Below, piece after piece: positions 1 through 39,100 of a DNA stretch of 64,000 nucleotides. The notes beneath the pieces are model-generated. The model searched no databases and was not told where the DNA came from. It saw nothing but the letters and a program-made list of their open reading frames with translations. Within the stretch, counting starts at the first letter, position 1. Every line of letters begins with the position of its first letter. The DNA is from Candidatus Omnitrophota bacterium (GTDB taxonomy: Bacteria > Omnitrophota > Omnitrophia > Omnitrophales > Aquincolibacteriaceae), in contig JAUYMS010000042.1 of NCBI GenBank assembly GCA_030698625.1, forward strand, positions 92,150 to 156,149, read 5' to 3'. A program made the position numbers and the translations under genes.

Positions 1-3000
1 CTTGCGCGCCGAGGTCTTGAGCATTTGCGCGGCGTTCCGGTCTCCCGATTCAAGTTCGAGAGTTTTCTTTTCTCCTTCGCCGTCCCTGTAGATGGCGCCC
101 TCCGGCTTCTGCAGGTAGTACCCGCCCATTAAGCGCACCTTACTCTGTCCCACGAAATAGCGCTTATCCGGTGTATCGTATTTCATTCTTAATTCGGAAC
201 GCGCTTGACGACTCGCGCCGTAGGCTTGCGGGTGCACGTCGGCAAAATCGGGGTATAGGTCGGTGCTTCGAGATACCAGAGTATGGTACCTCTCCATGGC
301 AAAAGCAAAATTACCCTCGCCGGAGCGCAGCAGATCGCCCGCACGAAATGGCGGCTCCCCCTCACTTTCGAGAAACTCTGCCGCATCCAGTATCAGCTCC
401 TCGAGCTCAAGCGTAAGCATTTCTACCTCAAGGTGAAATGCTTCACGCTCTCCTACGGGAAAATAAATGCCGGGAACCGGCGTGCGGTTGTACACCGCAA
501 CGACTCGATCTCTAAAATCGGCGTTTCGCTCGGAAAAATTCTCAACCTGCTGATGGGCACGGACGTTCAAGGCCGCGGTCGCATCGCCCGGCCGCGAAAC
601 AAGGCGGCTGTCGTAAAGGGCCATGATCTCTTCCCGCACGCGCTTGCGCTCCTTGTTCAGCTCGGCCATTCTGCGCCCCACGCGTCTTTGGAGGATGGTA
701 CCGGTCAAATACCACAAACCGGATAAACCGAGTCCTACAGCACTCATAACCACATCGATCCAAACCGGCCAGGCGATCATCTGCAAGGCCCTTCCCAATA
801 AGAAAATAGCGGGAAGCGATACCGCCGCAAGGAGGTGCCAAATACTCGGTTCCTCAAGACGCCGCACGCCAAATGAGGCCAACGTATAATGCTCGCGGGC
901 TTTGGCCATTTCCGCGGTCAGCCTTTGCGCCTTTTCGCGCAATGCACGGGCCGTCCCTTTCGCAGCGGCCTCGTCTACTCTAAGCTCCGAACGCTTCTTC
1001 TGATAAAAACGAAAGTCCATCTCGTGATAGGCGCGTGCCTCTGCGAGGAGTTCACGCACGAGAGCTTCCTGCTTTTGGCTCCAGCTAACGTTGCGATAAC
1101 TCTGAGCAGATCGATCAAGCGATGTCTCTCTGGCCGTCAAGGTCTGCAACATATCCGTCAGGGTCTTATAAGCAAATGCGGAGAATCGCCCGTAGCCCTG
1201 CCGCCGCCGTTGGTCTTCGTTGCGCAAGCGGTCAATGGCGGCCTGACGCAAAGCCGAAAAATTCAATCGGCTCAGCTCACGTATATACCGATTGGTTTGG
1301 CCGGCAACTTGATCAACGAAGGCATCCCTATCAAAATCGGGTTCGTTTCTGCGCCGGCGCTCCTCCACTTTTTCCAGCCGGCCGCCGACCACTTCCCTGG
1401 TCTTATCCTTTTCAAAATCAAAACGATCTCCGTAACCGGCCCGTAATTCTGACCGTGCGGGGAGGACTTCACTGACTCCGTCATCAATCTCTTGCTCGAT
1501 CCGCTGCAGATCATAACCGACAGCGCTCGCCGCATTGGCCCTTTTAAACATTTGTACAATGCCCCGGATGATGGAGACGCGCATAGTGCCGTAGACCACA
1601 TCATGGGCCGCTTCGATATTCTCGGGGATGATCCCCATGTGCGTCGGCTCCGGGGCCACAAGGGTTCCCATGTCCACGAGTTTCAGTTCCCCGGAAGGTG
1701 TGATACGAAAACTATCCGGCTTGAAATGCTTCACCCGCCGGCCGAATATACCCACCGTCAACTTCTGTCGGCCGAGTTCCAGCACAAACTCCGCGAATCG
1801 GCGCGAAAAGTTTTTCGCATCGAAGTCTGCCGGTTTCGCCAAAGCCTCTGAGACCGGCTGGCCGTCCACGTATTCCATGAGCATTGCCGCTGCCCGAACA
1901 CGTTCATTTCCAAACATTGCATTAAAACGGTAAAGCCGCTCGATCTTGGGCACATACCCCGTAGACTCCATGGCAGCTCCTAAGACCTGATCTTTTTCCA
2001 GTAAGTGCACAATATTTTCAGTCAAAATACGGTTGATCTCTTCCGCTTCACGGAAGCCGTAGCCGGTCCGAACCTTGTACCCGATGGGGACTTTCAAAGC
2101 CTTTTCCCCGCCCGCGGCATCTTTCACCAGATAGACCTCACCTCGCTCGCTTTCTCCCAACACACGCACAAACTCAAGCTCGGCATCAATCGCCTTAACA
2201 ATGGCTCCGGCATCAGCCGCTTCGATCGGCCATGCATAGTTAGACGCCACTTCACCGGCCCGTAGTTCGGAGCGGTGAGGAGCGTCAACGCTTGGCACGG
2301 GCACGGTCATGCGTTCGCGCGCACTTGTTTCGCCTAGTGCTTCCGGATACAAGACAACGTCGACAACGGTTTCGCCGGTCGCGGTTTGCCGCGGACGCAC
2401 GCGGTAGATCGGATCTCCGGCAGCGGTACTCGCATGGGCGCTCGCATTGAGCTGCGCAGCAAGACCCGGGCGGTCAGGCAGTAGGGGCGCGATCACTGAG
2501 AGAATCGTTCCGACTTCGGCCCCATAGAGCCAGCGAAGGTTGTCGAACAATTGCTTGCGCTGCGCCAGGCCGTGCGCCAAGGAAGCGGTTTCCATCGTGG
2601 ATCTTGTGAAGATATTAGACGCGTCCTGCAGAACGGCAGCGACATAGGCTTTCTGGCCGTCTTCGGCTTCGCCGAGCCCGATTTTCGGAGAAACCACTGC
2701 ATAGCTATAACCGCTGTCTTCGAAAAATTCACGGAAAGGCTCCTGGTGGAAACCTCCGGTGATGACGACCGCCTTTTCGAGTTCGAGTTCTTGCATGCGC
2801 CGGGCAATGTTCTCAGTCATCTCGGCATCACGCTTTTTCACCAGGCGATAAAACTCCATCGCTTTTTTGAAAAGCGCGTCGAGCCTGTCGAGGCTGTCAA
2901 AACGTGCTTCGCGAACACGCTTATCCGCGTTCAGCGAAAGAAAACGAGCGGCAACGGCTGAAGGCCGGATCGCGCTCCCCTCGCCGCCGTTCAGCATGAT

Positions 3001-4194
3001 CGCATCATATTCTGCCGGGGTAAGCTCCAGGCGAAACAGCTTCTGCAGCAACCTGTAATCTGTGAGCAGCCGGACTAAGGACTTTTCTTCAGGCGAGACG
3101 GCAAGGGTGTCGGATAGCCGGCCGATGAGCCGCTCGGTCTCTGCCATCAACCGGTCTGCCTTGAGTTCGCTTTGGAGCAGGAGATGCCCCACAAAGAATT
3201 TCACATTCGGATAGGCCTCATAATTAAAGTTGGGCGGAAGAAGCGCGACCAAACTCTCGATGAGATTGCCCGTCTGGGGCTCGGGCAAATGGTGCTGGGT
3301 CAACCCCATGCTCAGAAGGCTCTCGACTTCGTCAACAACAGGACGGCGGTCGGCACGAATCACAAGCCTCCTGACATCCGCCAAAAAGCGGTCCCGTTCT
3401 ACGGGGAACTCTGTCATGTCGATCTTGGATTCGAATTCCCGCAATTTAAAGATCCTCAAAAGCTGGGGCCAGTCGATCTGCAGTGCCGGGTCCGTTAAGT
3501 CTAGGCGAAGCTGCTCTTTCGCCTGCGCTCTCAGAAGCTCCAGCCAGTCGGGAAGGGACAGAAATCCCTCATCATGAGCTGCCAGCTGTTTGAGAAACTG
3601 GCGAAGTTGTACATTTAAAAAATGTCCCGACAGATACCGGATCTGACTGTCCATGCCCTGCACGAACTCCGAACTTTCCTCCCTTGCTTTAAGTACGGTT
3701 CGAAAGGCGTCACGGTTGGCAAGATAAGTCGAAAGGGTTTCAATGCCGTAACCTTCCGCTTGGGGTTCGTCGATAAGAAAGAGTTCCGGCGCCTTTATAA
3801 GCGCCTGTTTGGCTAAATGATCCGCAATAGACTTTGTCAGGGCCGAATCGTCGGGGAAGATTCTCAAGATCTCGGGCTCAAGCTTGAAGGCCGTTCCCTC
3901 CACAAAAACAGTATTGATGTCATAGGCCGTTTTGAGATGATGAAGAATCGTTTGGATATTCTTCTGCGCTTCGTAGTTACCGTGAGCCGTTTGAACGTGA
4001 ATCAGTGTGGGGCCGTTGCCGAGATGGAACCTGTCGACTGTTCCGAGCTCCGCGGGGATTTCGAGTTGAAAGTTCGGGGAAACACGGACTTCGGCTTGCG
4101 CGTAAACCATAGCGGCGGCATAACTTTGCGGCGCTGCAACAAAGTTACTAGCGAAGAAAATAATTGCCGTCAGCCATGTTGTGATTTTTAACAT
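1..4194 (-). CDS. Large secreted/membrane multidomain protein, 3' end beyond window start (>=1398 aa visible). It has an N-terminal signal peptide, a protein-kinase-like domain, two TM helices and four RSELR motifs.
   Basis: Manual translation of the minus strand from ATG at 4194 (RBS GAGGGG about 10 nt upstream) is stop-free down to nt 1. 4194 is divisible by 3, so the frame exactly fills the window edge. It is absent from the ORF track only because it has no in-window stop. The N-terminus MLKITTWLTAIIFFASNFVAAPQSYAAA looks like a signal peptide. Confidence 0.7.
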   Translation of the reverse strand, partial: MLKITTWLTAIIFFASNFVAAPQSYAAAMVYAQAEVRVSPNFQLEIPAELGTVDRFHLGNGPTLIHVQTAHGNYEAQKNIQTILHHLKTAYDINTVFVEGTAFKLEPEILRIFPDDSALTKSIADHLAKQALIKAPELFLIDEPQAEGYGIETLSTYLANRDAFRTVLKAREESSEFVQGMDSQIRYLSGHFLNVQLRQFLKQLAAHDEGFLSLPDWLELLRAQAKEQLRLDLTDPALQIDWPQLLRIFKLREFESKIDMTEFPVERDRFLADVRRLVIRADRRPVVDEVESLLSMGLTQHHLPEPQTGNLIESLVALLPPNFNYEAYPNVKFFVGHLLLQSELKADRLMAETERLIGRLSDTLAVSPEEKSLVRLLTDYRLLQKLFRLELTPAEYDAIMLNGGEGSAIRPSAVAARFLSLNADKRVREARFDSLDRLDALFKKAMEFYRLVKKRDAEMTENIARRMQELELEKAVVITGGFHQEPFREFFEDSGYSYAVVSPKIGLGEAEDGQKAYVAAVLQDASNIFTRSTMETASLAHGLAQRKQLFDNLRWLYGAEVGTILSVIAPLLPDRPGLAAQLNASAHASTAAGDPIYRVRPRQTATGETVVDVVLYPEALGETSARERMTVPVPSVDAPHRSELRAGEVASNYAWPIEAADAGAIVKAIDAELEFVRVLGESERGEVYLVKDAAGGEKALKVPIGYKVRTGYGFREAEEINRILTENIVHLLEKDQVLGAAMESTGYVPKIERLYRFNAMFGNERVRAAAMLMEYVDGQPVSEALAKPADFDAKNFSRRFAEFVLELGRQKLTVGIFGRRVKHFKPDSFRITPSGELKLVDMGTLVAPEPTHMGIIPENIEAAHDVVYGTMRVSIIRGIVQMFKRANAASAVGYDLQRIEQEIDDGVSEVLPARSELRAGYGDRFDFEKDKTREVVGGRLEKVEERRRRNEPDFDRDAFVDQVAGQTNRYIRELSRLNFSALRQAAIDRLRNEDQRRRQGYGRFSAFAYKTLTDMLQTLTARETSLDRSAQSYRNVSWSQKQEALVRELLAEARAYHEMDFRFYQKKRSELRVDEAAAKGTARALREKAQRLTAEMAKAREHYTLASFGVRRLEEPSIWHLLAAVSLPAIFLLGRALQMIAWPVWIDVVMSAVGLGLSGLWYLTGTILQRRVGRRMAELNKERKRVREEIMALYDSRLVSRPGDATAALNVRAHQQVENFSERNADFRDRVVAVYNRTPVPGIYFPVGEREAFHLEVEMLTLELEELILDAAEFLESEGEPPFRAGDLLRSGEGNFAFAMERYHTLVSRSTDLYPDFADVHPQAYGASRQARSELRMKYDTPDKRYFVGQSKVRLMGGYYLQKPEGAIYRDGEGEKKTLELESGDRNAAQMLKTSARK
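187..201 (-). other. RSELR motif codons (QARSELRMK) in the truncated large protein.
   Basis: Reverse complement cgt tcc gaa tta aga = R S E L R, in frame with the 4194 ORF. Confidence 0.8.
979..993 (-). other. RSELR motif codons (KKRSELRVD).
   Basis: Reverse complement cgt tcg gag ctt aga, in frame. Confidence 0.8.
1441..1455 (-). other. RSELR motif codons (PARSELRAG), C-terminal boundary of the kinase-like domain.
   Basis: Reverse complement cgg tca gaa tta cgg, in frame. Confidence 0.8.
1456..2259 (-). other. Eukaryotic-like protein-kinase-like domain (about 270 aa) bracketed exactly by two RSELR motifs.
   Basis: Gly-rich loop LGESERGEVYLV, putative VAIK-like lysine in EKALKV, HFKPDSF (degenerate HRDLKPxN) and LVDMG (DFG-like), seen in the translation. 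The catalytic motifs are degenerate, so it may be a pseudokinase. Confidence 0.45.
2260..2274 (-). other. RSELR motif codons (PHRSELRAG), N-terminal boundary of the kinase-like domain.
   Basis: Reverse complement cgc tcc gaa cta cgg, in frame. The plus-strand 17-mer ccgtagttcggagcggt is shared with giant-gene motif copy 8 at 37847. Confidence 0.8.
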
Positions 4195-4366
4195 CGTAGA
4201 AAATTCCCCTCTGTTCCGCCTGAACGGAACCCTGTGAAATTTGCCTAAATGGACGTAAATAAAGGAGTTGGTAAAGACTACCCGGTCGATCGGGCAGCTT
4301 CAAATCGGGGGAGTTTTTGATCTAGCATGGGCTAGCATTCAAAAACAATGAAGAGAGATGGCTGTC

Positions 4367-4524
4367 TACTTGTCCGCGTATAAATTGAGCATAAAGTCAC
4401 GGAACCACAGAGGCCGGCAAAAGAGGATATAGGCGGCAAAAATAGTGGCCATTGGAATGACAAAAAATACGATATCAAGAAGGAGAATTACCGCCGCGAT
4501 GAAGATTTTGTCCGTCGTCGTCAT
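4367..4524 (-). CDS. Small hydrophobic protein (51 aa), likely translationally coupled to the upstream amidotransferase gene.
   Basis: Its ATG overlaps the TGA of the 4521..5264 ORF (ATGA junction). Translation MTTTDKIFIAAVILLLDIVFFVIPMATIFAAYILFCRPLWF has one or two TM helices. It is below the ORF-track size cutoff. Confidence 0.3.
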
Positions 4525-5264: not shown

Positions 5265-8200
5265 CCGAGACGCACACGCAACCGCCCCAGTTGGTCGGTA
5301 ACGTCATCGGCGATGGAATACAGACAGGGCACCAACAGGAGTGTTAAAACCGTGGCAAACGCAATGCCATAACTGATGGCGAGCGCCATCGGTTTGATAA
5401 AGGGGTCACTGCCCCCGATCCCATACGCGACCGGCATCAAACCGAAAACGGTAGTCACGCTCGTAAGGATGACGGGACGCAAGCGTAGTTTTCCGGCCTC
5501 AATGATGGACTCCATGCGCCCCAACCCCTGTTCCTTGCGTTGGGCGTGGATGAAATCGACCAATACGATGGAGTCATTGACGACGACCCCGCTCAAACCG
5601 ATCGTGCCGAGAAGGGCCATAAAGCTTAAAGGCTGGCCGTGCAGAAAAAACGTGACAATAACCCCTACGATGCCAAAGGGAATGGCCGACATGACGATCA
5701 GCGGCCGCACGATGGAATTAAAATTGGCTGCCAGGATAATGAAGATAAAGAAAAGCGATAGAAAGAGCGCGCGGATAAAATCGTGGAGCGATTCCTTAGT
5801 CTCTTCCTGCTCTCCGCCGAAACTCATAGTAATGCTCGGATAACGTTTTTGTATTTCCGTTTTATAGTAGGCCCTCACCTTCCCCTCCACCTCGATCGGC
5901 GTAATCTGTTTCTCATCGAGATCCGCGGTCACATTGACCATGCGTTTACGGTCAAAGTGCTTGATGGCGTTGACGCCGACAGCCTCTTCAAGCGTCGCAA
6001 TCTTCATCAGGGGCACTAAGTTCCCCAGCCGATTCGGCACCAGGGCCCGGTCAAAAACCTCTTTCGAAGTCGTTTCATTGTCGGGGTATTTAACGATGAC
6101 TTCGATTTCCTCGTCCGTCTTGCGAATCTTCGTCGCCTCACCCCCTTCGATTCCGCGCCGGACAGCATTAGCCACGTCGCGCACCGTCAAATAGGCCTTG
6201 GTCGCCTTCTCTTCGTCGACAATAACCCGCAGCTCCGTTTTCCCGATATCGTAGTCGTCCCGAACATCCTTGAGGCCGGGGATCCCCGAAAGAAACCGTT
6301 TAAAGACTGAAGCGGCTTCATCTAAAAGGTCTAAGTCGTCCCCTCGGAGTCGTATGGCAACCGGCTTACCTACAGGCGGTCCCGCGCGCACCTTTTCGAA
6401 CGTAACCTCATCAAAGATATCTTCAAAGGCCTTCGACTTTTCACGCAGTTCGGCAATGATGTCGTCGGCCTTGCGCCTTCCTCGGGCCCTGCTTTCAGGA
6501 GTCAAGAACACATGCACCTGCCCGAGGTGAGATCCCCGGTCGGTATACGGATCGTCCGGGCCTTCCCGCATCATGCCGACTTGGGTTACGAAATTTTCGA
6601 GCTCCGTATCCGGCATTTTCTTGATGAGGTCTCCAAAATTCGCAAGCCTTTTATCCATTTCTTCCAGAGACGTTCCTATGGGGGCTTTCGCCCGAATAAA
6701 AAATTCCTCGATCATACCCTGTGGGAACAGAATAAACCGCATGCCCGCAAAAAACAGGAGCAAAGAACCGACAAACACACACACAAAGGCCATCACCGCC
6801 TTATAGCGGTGGCTGATCACCCATTTCAACATCGCCAGATAACGCTCACGCATCTTAATAAACCAAGGGCTCTCGGACTTTCCTTTCCCCCGCATACTCC
6901 CGCCAAAATCAGTCAAATGACTCGGGAGGATAACGAAACATTCAAACAGAGACGCCGACAGCGTGATGATCACGATCACGGGAATAACGGCAATGTACTT
7001 CCCGATAATGCCGCTCATGAATAAGATGGGGATGAAAGCGGCAATGGTGGTCAACACCGTCGTTATCACCGGTTTGGCGACCTGACTAGTACCCTGAATT
7101 GTCGCCTCGCGCGCTGAGAGCCCCATCTCGCGATGGCGGTACACATTCTCGGCAATAATAATGGCGTCGTCGACGACCATCCCCAAGACCATGATCAAGG
7201 CAAACATGGTAATCAGGTTGATAGTCAATCCGAACGCATACATGCCGAAAAAAGCGGTCATGACGGCTACCGGGATTCCGAGCGCAGTCATGACGGCTGT
7301 CCGGCGGGAAAGAAAGACCAGCAGACTGAAGACAACCAGGATAATTCCGATGGCGCCGTTATTCTTCAACACGTTCAGCCTGCGCTTGACATAAAAGGAG
7401 TAATCGTCAAAGTAGCTCACCTGCAGCTTCTCATGATCCTTCTTGAAGAGTTCCGCCGTTTCTTTGATCTGCTTGACGAGCCGGATAATATCGCCATTTT
7501 CTTTTTTGACCACTGTGAGCGTGATCGCCGGCTTGCCGAAGGTCTTCTCAATGACGTCATCGTCTTCGAATGTGTCCCGGACTTCGGCCACATCAGAGAC
7601 GCGAATCCAGTTTCCCAGATCATTGGCACGAATAATCACTTTGCGGATGTCGTCGGCAGTTTTGAATTCGCCGATGGTCCTGACTAAATAATCACCCTCC
7701 TTGGCGTGGAGAGTACCGCCGGGGACGTTCAGGTTCTGGTTGCGCAGGGCCAGGACAACGTCTTCCAGCGACAATTTGTAATCGTCGACGATCTTGGGGG
7801 TGACTTCCACCCAGATTTCTCGATCACGCCACCCGAGTCTTTCGATGCGCGCCACATCCCGCAAATCCAGAAAGCGCAATTCGAGCAGCCGCGCCAGCCT
7901 TTGCAGTTCCAGTTCGTCAAAGTCTCCCGACAAAGAGACATTGATCACCGGGATGTCCTTGGTCTGCAGCGCTTCAACTTCGGAGTCCTCGGCGTCTTCG
8001 GGAAGGTCATCGACGCGGTCCACGGCACGCTGGATATCGGTGACGATCTTGGTCTTGTCCTTTTCCGCCGGATCGATCTGCAGAACAATGATCGAGATGT
8101 TCTCCGTCGAAATAGAGGTCATCTCATCAATGCCGCTGACCTCCTTAAGTTCGTCTTCAAGCTCAATGGTAACAAGCTTCTCGACCTCTTCGGGCGGAGC

Positions 8201-13096: not shown

Positions 13097-15085
13097 GTGA
13101 GTTGTCCTTCTAATTTTTCTCGATGGCAATGGGGCATCCTCTTGGCGGGATTTTTTCTATCGTTGCTGCTACCCGTTGTACAGATCTTTCACTCCTCCGA
13201 AATATCCGTCCTGACGCATCGTTCAGGTGCCGAGTGGATTCGCTACCCCGAAGCCCCGCACACCCTTCCGCGTCAGGTACTGACCCCAACCGTCTTTTCT
13301 AAATCAATCTCCGTGGAAGGCTTCGAAGACACGGCCGAACTCGAACTCAGGGCTCCGGGGCACGTAAAACTGACCGTTAACGGGAAGACTGTTTGGCAGC
13401 GTAAATGGCGCGAGGGCAATTGGAAGAAATCAGGCCCCATTGTCGTCGGCCGGCAACTTGTTCCGGGTCGAAATCTAATCGTTGTGGAAATCGATAATCC
13501 TCTCGGGCCCCACATGTTTCAATTGAGAAGCCGGGCCGTTACACCGCCGCTGCAAAGTGATGAAACCTGGGCCGTTACCCAGGGGAATCGTCCGCCGGCG
13601 CGTGCCGTAAAAGTTTCCGAGAAATCGCTGCCGGACGCCAAGACGGCTTATCCGACAGCGGCGGCCGCACTAGTCCGTCACGGCAAATTACTCGGCACCT
13701 TAATGGCAGTCTTTTCGCTTTTTTTCATTCTTGGGCCGCAATTACGCTTGAAGGAGCTGATACGCTGGGGGCCGGTCTGTCTGCTTGCGGGCGTTACGCT
13801 GATATGGGGCTGGCTTTATGTGCGAGTATGGACAGAGCTTCCTATGCGTATTGGTTTTGATTCCGGTGGTCATATCGGGTATGTCGATTTTATTCTTGAG
13901 AAGGGCAGACTGCCGCTGGCCCACGAGGGGTGGTCGACCTTCCACCCGCCCCTCTACTATTTACTTACGTCCCTTTGTCTCGGCGCCGTAAAAATCTTCT
14001 CCGGGACACCGGCAGTTATAAGCGCGGCTTACCGTTTTATACCCTTTGTTTGCGGTCTCGGGCATATTTTCCTGTGTTGGGCCCTTGCGCGGTGTATCTT
14101 CACCGATAACTCCGGAAAAATTCTTCTGACGGTGGCTGCGGCGGCGGCAACACCGATGAACGTGTATTTGTCAGCGTATCCCGGCAACGAACCGCTACAA
14201 TCTTTTCTGGTGGGGGCCGCAATCGTAGTCACGGCACATATGCTCATGCGCGAACGTGCCCTCCTCGGAGAAGCGCTATTTATCGGCGCCCTGCTCGGTC
14301 TGGCCGTGCTTACCAAGTTCACGTCTCTGGCAGCGATCCCGGTTATCGCCCTTTTCCTTGGAGTCAAGAAAACACTCATTGAAAAGTCTCCCGCCCGGGA
14401 CACCTTGAAATACTTGACGGCGCTCATCGTACCGATTGTCTGCATCACCGGATGGTATTTCGCCCGAAACATTGCTGAATACGGCAGGCCGGTTATTGTA
14501 AACTGGGGACTAAAGGATCAGTTGTGGTGGCAGGACCCCGGCTATCACATGCCGGCTTATTACCTTAATTTCGGCGCGGCCCTTGTCCGCCCCTATTTCT
14601 CGGCGTTCCTGTCCTTTTGGGACGGCATGTATTCCACGTTCTGGGGAGACGGCAATCTGGGCGGTCTCGCGCAGCTCGACGAAGCCCTGCAACTTGGGTG
14701 GTGGCGTTTTGATTTGATGACGGCAACTTACCCGCTCGCGGTGCCTGCGACACTCATGATCCTCCTGGGATTTACCGCCTGCCTGCGCCAAGGTCTCGGA
14801 GCCGGAGAAATCAGGCGGCGTTGGACGCTCACGTTTCTGGCGACTATTGCCTATACCTTTATCTGGTTCGTCGCGTATGCCACCATGCGCGTTCCGATTT
14901 TTTCCCAGACAAAAGCATTTTATTGCTTATCGGTCATGGGACCCATCTGCGTGTTTTTTACTTTGGGATTTACGGCGACAAGAGATTTTTTAGGTGCCAG
15001 GATGGGTGTCCTGGGAAAGGCCATCCTCTACGGGTGGCTGGGGACACTTCTGACCGTCGTCTACCGCACTTACGGACTCGGGTAA
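13097..15085 (+). CDS. Polytopic membrane protein, GT-C fold (GT39/ArnT/PMT-like) glycosyltransferase candidate.
   Basis: 662 aa with many predicted TM helices and a GTG start. It is a paralog in architecture of the 34023..35879 protein. Confidence 0.5.
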   Translation: MSCPSNFSRWQWGILLAGFFLSLLLPVVQIFHSSEISVLTHRSGAEWIRYPEAPHTLPRQVLTPTVFSKSISVEGFEDTAELELRAPGHVKLTVNGKTVWQRKWREGNWKKSGPIVVGRQLVPGRNLIVVEIDNPLGPHMFQLRSRAVTPPLQSDETWAVTQGNRPPARAVKVSEKSLPDAKTAYPTAAAALVRHGKLLGTLMAVFSLFFILGPQLRLKELIRWGPVCLLAGVTLIWGWLYVRVWTELPMRIGFDSGGHIGYVDFILEKGRLPLAHEGWSTFHPPLYYLLTSLCLGAVKIFSGTPAVISAAYRFIPFVCGLGHIFLCWALARCIFTDNSGKILLTVAAAAATPMNVYLSAYPGNEPLQSFLVGAAIVVTAHMLMRERALLGEALFIGALLGLAVLTKFTSLAAIPVIALFLGVKKTLIEKSPARDTLKYLTALIVPIVCITGWYFARNIAEYGRPVIVNWGLKDQLWWQDPGYHMPAYYLNFGAALVRPYFSAFLSFWDGMYSTFWGDGNLGGLAQLDEALQLGWWRFDLMTATYPLAVPATLMILLGFTACLRQGLGAGEIRRRWTLTFLATIAYTFIWFVAYATMRVPIFSQTKAFYCLSVMGPICVFFTLGFTATRDFLGARMGVLGKAILYGWLGTLLTVVYRTYGLG

Positions 15086-36139: not shown

Positions 36140-39100
36140 TTACGCACTTATGTCGATGAGCTCTTCGCGGATTAGACTCTCCTCGATGTACTTGCCGAGG
36201 TCGACAAGGTACGCGTCACCCTTAGATCTGGCATTGGGGAAGATGTCTTCAATGTGCTGGTCCAGCAGAGCCGCTTGCTCAAGCGGGTCTTTAACGCCGC
36301 GAATAAGTTTGGCAGGTTCGAGAAGGGCTACCGCCAGAAAAGCCAAGCCCTCGAAGTCACCGCGATCGGCGGCCTGCGGATCCACAATAAAATTGGCGGC
36401 CGTCCCGATATTTTCAGGCAGCACATTTCTATCCGAAAGAAGCGTGGCCACACCCGCTTCGCTTTCGCCCACATAAGAAGCCACATGTTCAACCGCGACA
36501 ACATTGACGAGCGTATTCAACCGCGGTAGCGTGAAAAGATCGCCCGCATCCTGTTCCTCCTGCCAGTGAATCCCGTTATCACGCTTCAAAAATGCCCGTT
36601 TCAAGACGCGTTCCAGAATATCGTCGCTCCCCAGAATTCCCACCAGGGGTTTCGCCCCCGGATGCTGCTTCTCGAATTGATCCAAGGCCCGGAAAAGCAG
36701 GTACAGTGTTCGCGGACTCTTCTCAATAAGCCGTTCAATCCAAACCGAGTCGATAAGGACCTGGCCCATGTCGGCGACCTGCTGCTGCATTTTCTCGTTG
36801 AAGCGCGGCGTCATGACCACGCGGCCTTGACCCAGTTTTGTGAGGATCGTGCTTTCGGTCGTTTGCGGCATAATTCCGGCACGCTCCGAGTAAACAGCAC
36901 GATTCAGGAGCCCCGACAACAGGGTCACCAGAGCTTCGGTAGAATGCTCTTCCAGTCTTCTCGGCAGAATCTGCGCGCGCGGCCCATGAAAGATCCGTTC
37001 GCCTTGAGCCGTGAGAAGTTCGTCTGCAACTCTCAATTCCGAGCGCTCGGAACCGTCAGGGATCTCGCCTTGCCCTAAGAGCTGCTCTAGAACCGGTTCA
37101 TAATCCCGCCTGCCGACGTCAATGAAATCCCGCGCAATGGCTACTCCCACTTCAAAATCGAATTTTTCGAATACTCTGATACCTGCGTCCAGAACCCTGG
37201 ACCGCTTATTGAAATTTTCGCGCCAGATGCCTGATAAGCCCTTTCTCAGATCACGATCCAGCTTTTCCCAGAATTTTTCGATCACGTCGCCATCGATGTC
37301 CACAGCACGCGGGTTGATAGAGTTCATGACAACGCGTCCCGTGTAATCGATCAGGAAGTCACGCGAGGGCAGATAAAGTCCCGGCTGAACATCGGCTACA
37401 TCGTATTCGATCCCCGCCCTTAAATAAATGTCGTTAGCGTTCACCCAAAACTCGGTAGGGATATCCGACATAGAAACGGTTCCTGCTGACCGCACTTTTA
37501 GTGTTTTCTGCTCGGGCAGCCACCAGTCAATGCCCCCTTCAAAATCGTCCCGCAGCTTAAATTCAGGGCTTAAAACTACAACATCCACATCTTTGTGTCT
37601 GAGCAGGTCCTTCGCCTGGACCCGTTGATTCCATAAGTCGGGCGCTATGCTGCCGATCACGATGCCGACGGCCCCCCGCTCTTTAAGAATACGATCCGCC
37701 GTTTGCAGAGCCCGTAATCCTTTCGCGGCATTGGGAGGAACAGGATCTTCCTCTTCCATTTTCTGAATCTGCAGTTGGAGAGTTTTCATGAGCTGCTTCT
37801 GAGCATAAGTCGGCTTCTGTGCCTGAATCATCATCTGGCTCATTGACCGTAGTTCGGAGCGGTAAGGGTCGTCGTCGAAATCGAATTCCTCGGCAGCATG
37901 TTCGTCGGCCCGGCGCTGCAGATAAGGATGAGCGAACTGCTGACCCGAATGCTTAATGAAAATGGGCGGCACCAATTCTGAAAACTGTGCCGCGCCGACC
38001 GGCATACCTTCAGGGGCTCCGTTCATGACGGAATACGGGAGGCCCAAATCAATGGCCTCAAGCAACAGATACCTGGAAAGGTTCTCCCCCATATTGAAGC
38101 CGCGCATAAATCTCCATGAGAGCATTCCGCCGGGCGCAACAGTGCTCATCAGGCGGCGGACGCTTTCCGTCCTGAGATCGACCCCATCGGTAGCGTTAAG
38201 AAAGACAAGGTCGAACGGTTCCTCTCCGAGCTGACCGGTCTCAATGACCTCTTCGATCCTGCCCGGCACGGTCTCAATGCCGTAGGCATCCAGTTTAAGG
38301 CGGTTCTCAAAATCAAAGCCCGAATTATTCCCGACGAGCTCGAACTCAAAGGTTCCGTCGGCCTCCAGCAATGCCTTAAGCCTAATCAAGAACTCTCCCT
38401 TCCCCGTAGCCACATCCAATATGCGGAGTTTTTTCTTATCCGCAAATTCGCTTTTCAGGATGTCGATGAACGCGGGAACTTGTGTTTCCGCCTGGACGGG
38501 TTTGCGGTACTCTTCAGACAGGAGATGGGAAAATCTTGTGAGGCGCTGAACACTATCACGCAAAGCTTCCGCATCGAGATCGAATCCTTGATCGGCGACA
38601 TGGTCCAGCATGGCCTCAAACCCCCTGCCACCAAAGGACTGTAATGCCTCCATCACGGCGATATCGAGTTCGGCTTTGGCACGAAGCTCCGGATTCGTCC
38701 TCAGCGTAAAGATCGTATATGGGTTGCCGTTTCTAAAGCTGAGCTCCGGAGAGGAATTCGGCCCCCCCGAACTCGCTCGTACATAGGCGATTCTTTTTTC
38801 AAAATCATTCTCCGGATAAGATTCGACCAAATTAAATTCATCGATCGAGATCTTGCCGCCCAATCCGTAGATTTTGGCAAATTCTGTCAGCTGACTGCCG
38901 GTTCCGTCGCTTTCACCGACGGAACTAACCATGATCAGCCCCTTCCGGTTAAGCAGAGAGCGGAGCATGAGAATCGGCCACTCGTCCGGATCAAGAGGCA
39001 GGGGCTCATAACTGAATGTCCAGTCGACATCGCCCTTTGCAACGGGTTCCTTAAGAGGGTCCCCGACACGAAATCTCGCGGACAAATCTTCTCCCGCGGC

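Follow-up and report, generated by a model that had tools for sequence, protein, structure and literature searches.

An R-x-E-x-R Pentapeptide Delimits the Modules of a Polyprotein-Like Family in Omnitrophota and Is a Candidate Processing Site

A Truncated Gene With Repeated RSELR Motifs

The analyzed DNA is a stretch of 64,000 nucleotides (nt; hereafter the window) from the genome of a Candidatus Omnitrophota bacterium (assembly GCA_030698625.1, contig JAUYMS010000042.1, positions 92,150–156,149). At its left end, the minus-strand frame running from nt 4194 to nt 1 was translated into 1398 codons with zero stops. The ATG at nt 4194 was the sole in-frame start downstream of the nearest in-frame stop (nt 4302), and a Shine-Dalgarno-like element, GAGGGG, was located approximately 9 nt 5′ of it. 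The open frame, the single start with its ribosome-binding element, and the homologues found elsewhere (proteins P0001–P0020 and loci L001–L046) identify nt 1–4194 of the minus strand as the 5′ part of a modular, polyprotein-like gene, the 3′ end of which lies beyond nt 1. The original prediction had described an unreported truncated open reading frame (ORF) of this extent, and the translation agreed with it; the ORF list of the window omits the gene, as had been pointed out, since ORFs running off the window are not listed. Judged from its sequence, the ORF is a real, truncated gene, with homologues at 36–48% identity in many metagenome-assembled genomes (MAGs) of Omnitrophota. A search of Pfam and NCBIfam with the whole protein and with each of its modules returned no usable match.

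Attempts to extend the gene to the left were unsuccessful, and they recovered no orthologue. The scan of genome contigs gave only relatives with identity of 45% or less, and two metagenome scans, in which residues 641–1398 and the C-terminal module of the giant ORF described below served as queries, gave zero matches. An exact look-up of the neighboring AcrB-type pump recovered a Logan contig (SRR13727534), which stops at approximately nt 4205, just short of the gene.

The pentapeptide RSELR was found four times in the truncated protein, namely at residues 641–645 (nt 2260–2274), 914–918 (nt 1441–1455), 1068–1072 (nt 979–993), and 1332–1336 (nt 187–201), all on the minus strand. Only 0.006 copies were expected from the composition of the protein itself (P ~5e-11). 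The second carrier is a giant ORF of at least 9283 amino acids on the same strand (nt 36140–64000), where 10 copies were found against 0.03 expected. Thus, the claim that the two genes, 32 kb apart, carry the motif independently was borne out. The six-frame translation of the window contained 14 RSELR in total, i.e., those of the truncated gene and of the giant ORF, with none in the other four frames, and RSELR was by far the most repeated pentapeptide in both proteins. Across the 14 copies, the five positions were encoded by 3 Arg, 4 Ser, 2 Glu, 5 Leu, and 5 Arg codons. Nearly every available synonym was used, and the DNA flanking the copies was unrelated. Therefore, the constraint acts on the peptide and not on DNA or RNA; an explanation of the motif at the DNA or RNA level was ruled out on the same grounds.

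The giant ORF has a listed GTG start at nt 63991, and no stop occurs from there to the window end, to which the frame stays open; it is probably truncated at its N-terminus as well. It encodes a chain of GT4, acyltransferase, cytidylyltransferase, epimerase, LOG, ABC1, M48, FHA, and HEAT domains and is one of the giant proteins of Omnitrophota. Within this chain, the Peptidase_M48 match was located at approximately residues 5526–5579, about 50 residues past the motif at 5473, and the match to the ABC1 atypical kinase at approximately residues 6821–6994. The last 296 amino acids (nt 36143–37030), ending in ...LIDISA, constitute the C-terminal module (C-module) shared with the family described below.

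The N-Terminal Unit of the Truncated Protein

The first 26 residues (nt 4117–4194, minus strand) resemble a Sec-type signal peptide, with MLK followed by the hydrophobic region W7–A21 and the end SYA|A (MLK / WLTAIIFFASNFVAA / PQSYA|A). In the AlphaFold2 (AF2) model, residues 3–19 formed a helix and residues 20–40 were disordered, and an equivalent segment was present in all homologues. The signal peptide had been called convincing; reading of the sequence was consistent with a Sec type, which makes it a predicted and not a proven signal.

The signal peptide is followed by the N-domain (residues 45–505, nt 2680–4062, minus strand), in which an alpha/beta core similar to that of TIKI, EreA, ChaN, and TraB is split by a helical insertion of approximately 370 amino acids (residues ~105–470). 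Four of its residues, H71 in QTAHG (nt 3982–3984), E99 in VEG (nt 3898–3900), R455 (nt 2830–2832), and H483 in GGFH (nt 2746–2748), were invariant in 21 of 21 family members, and this held when the stand-alone forms of the domain were added. The TIKI superfamily has an alpha/beta fold with a central parallel beta-sheet that is common to ChaN, Bcr135/Ere, HopBA1, PMT, and RRSP, and its His-Glu pair is H85/E113 in Bcr135 and H3902/E3930 in RRSP, where H4030 is the second His (PMC6254334). The predicted fold of the N-domain is of this alpha/beta type, and the best structural matches of the model were TIKI/EreA/ChaN/TraB-type proteins. A His-Glu pair and a second His were also found, as H71, E99, and H483, with the equivalence of the catalytic residues assigned by position and secondary structure. 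The spacing between H71 and E99 is 28 residues, as in Bcr135 and RRSP. Thus, the N-domain shares with the TIKI/EreA/ChaN/TraB-PrgY-GumN superfamily (Tiki, RRSP, erythromycin esterases, ChaN, and HopBA1) the His-Glu pair at its characteristic spacing, and also a second His that follows a beta-strand as part of a G-x-x-H sequence. It differs from the superfamily in the long helical insertion, in the replacement of the first Glu by Thr in this clade, and in the lack of a significant profile or Foldseek match. At the position of that Glu (residue 69), most close relatives have Thr and two have Asn or Ser, while Glu or Asp occurs in 6 of the 21 members, including all three distant ones. Pfam matches of the N-domain all stayed below threshold: five of the 21 members matched DUF5694 (best E = 0.027), and two matched PF04187, "Tiki superfamily, ChaN" (best E = 0.023).

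The N-terminal unit ends in a small, poorly conserved alpha/beta tail (residues 540–635, nt 2290–2577, minus strand), delimited by AF2 secondary structure and the predicted local distance difference test (pLDDT), with a low-confidence linker at its end. In the model of residues 1–640, the final ~23 residues before the first motif had pLDDT below 50.

A Pseudokinase-Like Module Between the First Two Motifs

Residues 646–913 (268 amino acids; nt 1456–2259, minus strand) lie between the first and the second RSELR. A domain of about 270 residues bracketed by RSELR, with a Gly-rich loop, a Lys, and degenerate HRD and DFG motifs, had been predicted here, and these hallmarks were indeed present: the loop LGESERGEVY at 679–688, in which two of the three Gly are kept; ALKVP with K701; VKHFKPDS at 821–828; and DMG at 841–843, with D841. 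The sequence VKHFKPDS takes the place of HRDxKPxN, so that the catalytic-loop residues required of an active kinase are missing. Because His823 occupies the place of the HRD Asp and Ser828 that of the Asn, the module was termed pseudokinase-like.

The absence of kinase-fold support in profile searches had been named as an outcome that would refute the prediction. On this point the evidence was divided: the profiles were blank, since neither Pfam nor NCBIfam gave a match even at E ≤ 10, while structure and pairwise sequence comparison supported the fold. In a phmmer search against PDB sequences (E ≤ 10), 49 of 50 matches were protein kinases, the best of them being PknA (E = 0.002), in whose alignment VKHFKPDS...KLVDMG was placed on HRDVKPGN...KITDFG. 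The AF2 model built from a six-sequence alignment had a pLDDT of 78 and a predicted template modeling (pTM) score of 0.78. Its comparison with the PDB by Foldseek gave 1733 matches at E ≤ 1e-3, and all 50 matches listed were protein kinases (E ~2e-8, probability 1.00, TM-score 0.45–0.5). The predicted structure thus supports a pseudokinase-like assignment of residues 646–913 at the level of the fold. In common with the Hanks-type Ser/Thr kinases and pseudokinases (PknA/PknB), the module has a bilobal fold, a Gly-rich loop, K701 as the beta3 Lys, a remnant of the catalytic loop (K-P-x-x), and the DFG Asp in the form of DMG; it differs from them in the replacement of the HRD Asp by His and of the Asn by Ser, in a compact, divergent C-lobe, which is reflected in the TM-scores, and in the lack of a Pfam match.

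No homologue of the module was recovered by word-indexed searches, whether a single sequence or a profile served as the query. When 1.84 billion representatives were searched exhaustively with HMMER, six proteins were retrieved at E ≤ 1e-3, five of them credible and one apparently spurious. All five credible relatives carry the module inside long proteins. Of these, P0024 and P0025 belong fully to the family, having its N-domain and many copies of the motif; P0022 has RSEAR and the C-module. In these three, a canonical kinase domain with H[RH]DIKPxN precedes the kinase-like module. In 4 of 4 motif-bearing carriers, the truncated gene included, the module stops between a few and ~25 residues before a motif. 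In the six-sequence alignment, K701 and one loop Gly were invariant, the HRD position was not conserved, and the DFG Asp was partly conserved (D/D/D/G/N/D). The spurious match, P0023, is a protein of 1125 amino acids made of ~20 near-identical tandem units of ~55 amino acids, and the match was spread over seven weak stretches.

Downstream Modules and Topology

Two orphan modules follow, neither of which had a Pfam match, a match within the family, or any detectable relatives. The first (residues 919–1067, nt 994–1440, minus strand) is 38% charged. The second (residues 1073–1331, nt 202–978, minus strand) includes a transmembrane (TM) hairpin and, after it, a strongly basic stretch, QRRVGRRMAELNKERKRVR. 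The hairpin corresponds to the pair of TM helices noted previously, and the hydropathy scan likewise showed two adjacent hydrophobic helices at residues ~1116–1168 (nt 691–849). By the positive-inside rule, the flanks of the hairpin are predicted to be in the cytoplasm. The start of a fifth module (residues 1337–1398, nt 1–186, minus strand) is cut by the window edge. The parity of TM helices between consecutive motifs was also examined, i.e., whether their number is even; the hydropathy scan used for this was crude and gave overlapping segments and false positives in Rossmann folds.

A Family With a Common Frame and Variable Cargo

The homologue search yielded proteins of 1055–2404 amino acids from MAGs of Omnitrophota and of a few Elusimicrobiota, which matched the first ~540 residues only. 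The identity values given above (36–48%) apply to the closer homologues. A scan of one genome per species detected 46 loci, often several per genome. With all members considered, the lengths span 1055 to 6894 amino acids, so most of the proteins are not "giant." Past the shared N-terminal part, the cargo was unrelated and included PGI with FBPase, UDP-glucose dehydrogenase, phosphoribosyltransferase, HEAT repeats, a response-regulator receiver, PAS with histidine kinase, alpha-amylase, and a canonical Ser/Thr kinase. The enzymes carried as cargo are complete and of cytoplasmic type.

Nearly all complete members share a C-module of ~220–360 amino acids, which is conserved among the closer members; the available part of the truncated gene does not reach that far. 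Its profile matched nothing in Pfam or among PDB sequences. The C-terminal end is a small residue followed by Ala (...SA, ...AA, ...MA, ...YA, ...RA, or ...QA), even in distant motif-less members; such ends were found in P0001–P0005, P0007–P0009, P0011–P0013, P0015, P0016, P0020, P0022, and P0025, as well as in L004, L011, L017, L018, L023–L025, L031, L036, and L037. The N-domain also occurs in stand-alone proteins of 450–520 amino acids with classical Sec signal peptides (...SLCYA|ETIWEK), namely L032, L033, L034, L038, L044, L045, and L046. These proteins, which occur in many Omnitrophota, have no cargo, motif, or ...xA end. Therefore, the N-domain is an autonomous unit, and from its signal peptides it is probably exported.

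Thus, the frame of the family comprises a Sec-type signal peptide, a TIKI-like N-domain of ~500 amino acids, variable cargo, and, in complete members, the C-module. The original prediction had suggested a family of motif proteins in this genome. Such a family exists, but it is far wider, extending over the Omnitrophota, with the N-domain reaching the Elusimicrobiota; the lineage variation of the motif (R-[SAP]-E-x-R), the hydrolase-like domain at the N-terminus, and the shared C-terminal module had been overlooked.

Variants and Placement of the Motif

The closer relatives have the same punctuation in the form R-[S/A/P]-E-x-R. In a logo of 132 instances, R, E, and R at positions 1, 3, and 5 were invariant, position 2 was S, A, or P, and position 4 was mostly L, V, or A. 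The ten residues on each side carried no more than 0.46 bits per position, and small residues were slightly favored at –1 and +1. The variants differed by lineage: all 14 copies in this genome were RSELR, all four in P0017 were RPEAR, and RAE[VIL]R was found in P0001 and P0011. They also differed between paralogues of one MAG. In HYZ83, P0006 (HYZ83_04400) has RSETR and RSEAR, whereas P0008 (HYZ83_03975) has RSELR; in nzgw330, L009 has RSE[LA]R, whereas L012 has R[PLAV]ELR (RxELR). Such paralogue-specific variants hint either at chain-specific (cis) recognition or at a tolerant enzyme acting in trans. In the window and seven related loci, the motif was confined to the family ORFs, save for one relaxed-pattern match in a fragment of 85 amino acids. 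The distant carriers of the N-domain had neither an R-x-E-x-R-type motif nor any other over-represented pentapeptide. A reading of the motif as a phosphorylation site was ruled out, as entire lineages have Ala or Pro instead of Ser at position 2.

The motif was located at the borders of recognizable domains (Pfam coordinates). In P0014, the region from PAS to HATPase_c (613–1138) lies between motifs at 593 and 1143, and in P0010, the receiver domain (1174–1263) lies between motifs at 1150 and 1293. In P0011, a motif at 661 is followed by UDP-glucose dehydrogenase (UDPG-DH) from 678, and in P0006, FBPase_C ends at 2163 with the motif next at 2165. In the clade that includes this genome, the modules are thus delimited by R-[S/A/P]-E-[L/V/A/...]-R, which is under selection at the peptide level and stands at domain boundaries, in linkers that show no other conservation.

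In P0025, a segment of 112 amino acids occurs as an exact duplication (4302–4413 and 6448–6559). Its ends coincide with the opening R of RAEVR and the closing R of RSEVR, and in this respect the motif-bounded segment behaves as a unit of evolution; the modules preceding each copy are paralogues of one another (24% identity). The duplication could be a real, recent one or the result of gene conversion, or else an assembly artifact. On the L006 contig, a second long ORF (plus strand, frame 2; an open fragment of 3018 amino acids) with six motif copies was found beside a family ORF of 950 amino acids. The two may represent tandem family members or one gene broken by a masked run of N.

Genomic Context

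The genes around the truncated gene are ordinary and encode a GATase, an AcrB-type pump, a SpoU methylase, CBS proteins, a 2-oxoacid:ferredoxin oxidoreductase, and an aminotransferase. Between the GATase gene and the polyprotein-like gene, a hydrophobic ORF of 52 amino acids (MTTTDKIFIAAVILLLDIVFFVIPMATIFAAYILFCRPLWFRDFMLNLYADK) was observed at approximately nt 4366–4524 (minus strand), which was also called on the Logan contig L048. An ORF of 662 amino acids at nt 13097–15085 (plus strand) had no Pfam match and is situated amid well-annotated housekeeping genes. The cumulative GC skew falls almost steadily over the 64 kb (to –2.06), and the two long ORFs share the minus strand; therefore, the window probably lies within one replichore.

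Discussion

Omnitrophota are widespread, uncultivated, and ultra-small bacteria, and their genomes encode the longest proteins known. Taken together, the results suggest, with a probability that we put at roughly 55%, that the ORF encodes the N-terminal 1398 residues of an undescribed modular "polyprotein" family of Omnitrophota, in which the recurring motif is most likely a processing site. Several autonomous modules are joined in one ORF and parted by a recurring, specific site, as expected of a polyprotein. The motif is short and strict, stands in disordered linkers, is tuned by lineage, and occurs at the edges of complete enzymes, in the manner of viral and MARTX sites; on these grounds, and by analogy, it may well serve for site-specific proteolysis, for which we consider the odds to be about even. 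According to the proposed mechanism, the long translation product would be cut at the motif into separate proteins. The kinase-fold module would then be released as a protein of ~30 kDa, which would probably be non-catalytic and might bind a nucleotide or a partner.

The cutting enzyme could be the N-domain of the protein itself or of a paralogue, or else an unlinked enzyme. The N-domain is a candidate because members of the TIKI superfamily include the sequence-specific endopeptidases Tiki and RRSP. Its identification as the protease is speculative and on balance improbable; the domain also occurs motif-free and stand-alone, and it is probably located in a compartment other than that of much of the cargo.

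Several observations weigh against the proposed polyprotein and its processing. Distant, motif-less members also have the N-domain and the ...xA C-terminus, and stand-alone N-domain proteins occur as well; therefore, the frame can do without the motif, and the N-domain has no obligate link with it. Intervals between motifs reach 1766 amino acids in the giant ORF and some hold several enzymes, so the motif does not part every enzyme. With respect to the hydrolase-like domain, the first Glu of the 2His/2Glu set (E3900 in RRSP) is Thr69 here, which leaves the set incomplete. The Foldseek search with the whole N-domain model was not significant for the TIKI fold (best match EreC, E = 0.2), and no sequence profile connected the domain with solved TIKI members, the PDB searches being blank with the full alignment and yielding noise once it had been trimmed. 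The genes next to family genes did not include a conserved protease gene, the window locus and the context of P0009 both being ordinary. The topology is contradictory in that, with a functional signal peptide, all of the protein before the hairpin would be exported, while the basic stretch and the ATP- and NAD-dependent cargo of relatives point to the cytoplasm. A 2026 preprint (bioRxiv 10.64898/2026.06.07.730766) points out this contradiction for the giant proteins as well.

Alternatively, the motif could be an uncleaved docking or recognition peptide between modules, with a partner such as a chaperone, a scaffold, or the N- or C-terminal module organizing the intact chain. The position of the motif in linkers with uninformative flanks agrees with docking, and the variants that differ between paralogues of one genome would fit cis recognition by a domain of the same chain. 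Membrane hairpins of the long proteins could anchor such a chain, and published work takes the giant proteins as single membrane-anchored entities. However, five residues, three of them invariant and charged, in a disordered linker are more typical of an enzyme site than of a stable interface. Moreover, the modules are complete enzymes of unrelated function, N-domain proteins exist on their own, and no candidate binding domain strictly co-occurred with the motif. We therefore consider docking unlikely, though it deserves to be kept in mind.

Export or host targeting of each module is less probable still. In that case, the motif would act like PEXEL (RxLxE/Q/D) or RxLR in eukaryotic parasites, cleaved or not, and direct delivery out of the cell or into prey. 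Its short Arg/Glu/hydrophobic pattern does resemble PEXEL, and a signal peptide is present at the start of the protein. Omnitrophota have been inferred to be predators or parasites, and their giant proteins have been linked to prey attack (PMC10066038). However, the cargo consists mainly of housekeeping-type cytoplasmic enzymes and signaling domains (PGI, FBPase, UDPG-DH, response regulator, histidine kinase, and LOG), and the motif is internal and repeated rather than close to the N-terminus, with no homology to known targeting systems.

A role of the motif in translation appears very improbable; like the 2A peptides of eukaryotic viruses, the nascent peptide would stall the ribosome or interrupt the chain at module borders, and the modules would be separated or fold one by one. 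Constraint on the peptide with free synonymous codons is a property of 2A and arrest peptides too, and a separation after residue 645 would settle the conflict between an exported N-domain and cytoplasmic cargo. However, known arrest peptides need a longer upstream context, and the flanks here are uninformative. The motif is unlike any bacterial arrest peptide or 2A known to us, and we know of no bacterial chain-breaking peptide. Equally hard to credit is a functionless by-product of module acquisition, whether a recombination or cassette junction or a remnant of a duplicated ancestral linker: the exact duplication bounded by motifs in P0025 and the free shuffling of cargo among members would fit it, but a junction scar would decay or be kept as DNA, whereas positions 1, 3, and 5 show no variation in 132 instances from genomes whose N-domains are 36–48% identical, and the 14 copies in the window are codon-diverse to the limit of synonymy amid unrelated flanking DNA, for which reason they must be old and held by amino-acid selection.

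The suggested processing at the motif has counterparts in known systems. Viral polyproteins with 3C- or NIa-type sites likewise have a short, strict peptide at the borders of unrelated modules, in unconserved linkers, and these sites vary between lineages together with the cognate protease, as the motif described here varies by lineage. Unlike them, the present gene is cellular and chromosomal, lies amid housekeeping genes, and has no chymotrypsin-like protease module, and its cleavage is putative. In MARTX toxins, one bacterial ORF also encodes an array of unrelated modules, and the effectors are freed by cleavage of linkers by a protease of the same chain. The processing enzyme of MARTX is a cysteine protease domain, which is activated by inositol hexakisphosphate (InsP6) and cuts after Leu. 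MARTX toxins are distinguished by RTX repeats, type I secretion, and toxic effectors, whereas the family studied here has no RTX repeats, a cargo of housekeeping- and signaling-like domains, and R-x-E-x-R as its presumed site of cleavage. One MARTX effector, RRSP, is a TIKI-superfamily endopeptidase (PMC6254334).

The family also resembles the giant proteins of Omnitrophota ("archaeovorins" and relatives), which come from the same phylum and combine a signal peptide and a few TM helices with a chain of unrelated cytoplasmic-type enzymes and signaling domains (HEAT, HATPase_c, response regulator, LOG, and glycosyltransferases). A signal peptide and/or TM helices together with a mosaic of unrelated domains were found in the present family as well. 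The giant-gene study applied a cut-off of at least 30,000 amino acids for very long ORFs (West-Roberts et al., 2023; bioRxiv 10.1101/2023.11.21.568195), whereas proteins of only 1000–2400 amino acids also occur here. Proteolytic processing of giant proteins has been proposed, with C39 and S8 peptidase domains named as possible processors (10.1101/2023.11.21.568195; 10.64898/2026.06.07.730766). In the former study, the cleavage points were stated to be unknown, and the giant proteins were hence not split for structure prediction. The 2023 giant-gene study, the 2026 complete-genome preprint, and the 2023 Nature Microbiology survey do not mention the punctuation motif, this N-domain, or the C-module, and a full-text literature search for the motif strings gave unrelated matches only. 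Thus, long multi-enzyme proteins of Omnitrophota and their proposed proteolysis were already known, while the motif and the family frame are previously undescribed.

The motif at the module boundaries provides the first concrete candidates for cut points of the very long proteins of Omnitrophota and offers a rational way to divide such ORFs for annotation and structure prediction. Through it, the question of whether such an ORF yields one chain or many proteins becomes experimentally approachable. The truncated gene has the frame and the motif of the giant ORF but is small enough to work with; its start is defined, and it contains a candidate hydrolase domain and only a few modules. Should the motif not be a cleavage site, it would still be an unexplained, strongly selected feature of a large protein family. 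As a tentative generalization, somewhat short of even odds, the motif may be the cleavage code of the long and giant proteins of Omnitrophota, i.e., of chromosomal polyproteins from which many housekeeping, signaling, and envelope proteins would be cut at this site, possibly by the N-domain, with the variant tuned for each lineage or paralogue. If true, cells would have an equivalent of the polyprotein strategy of viruses, and the TIKI superfamily would gain a new role.

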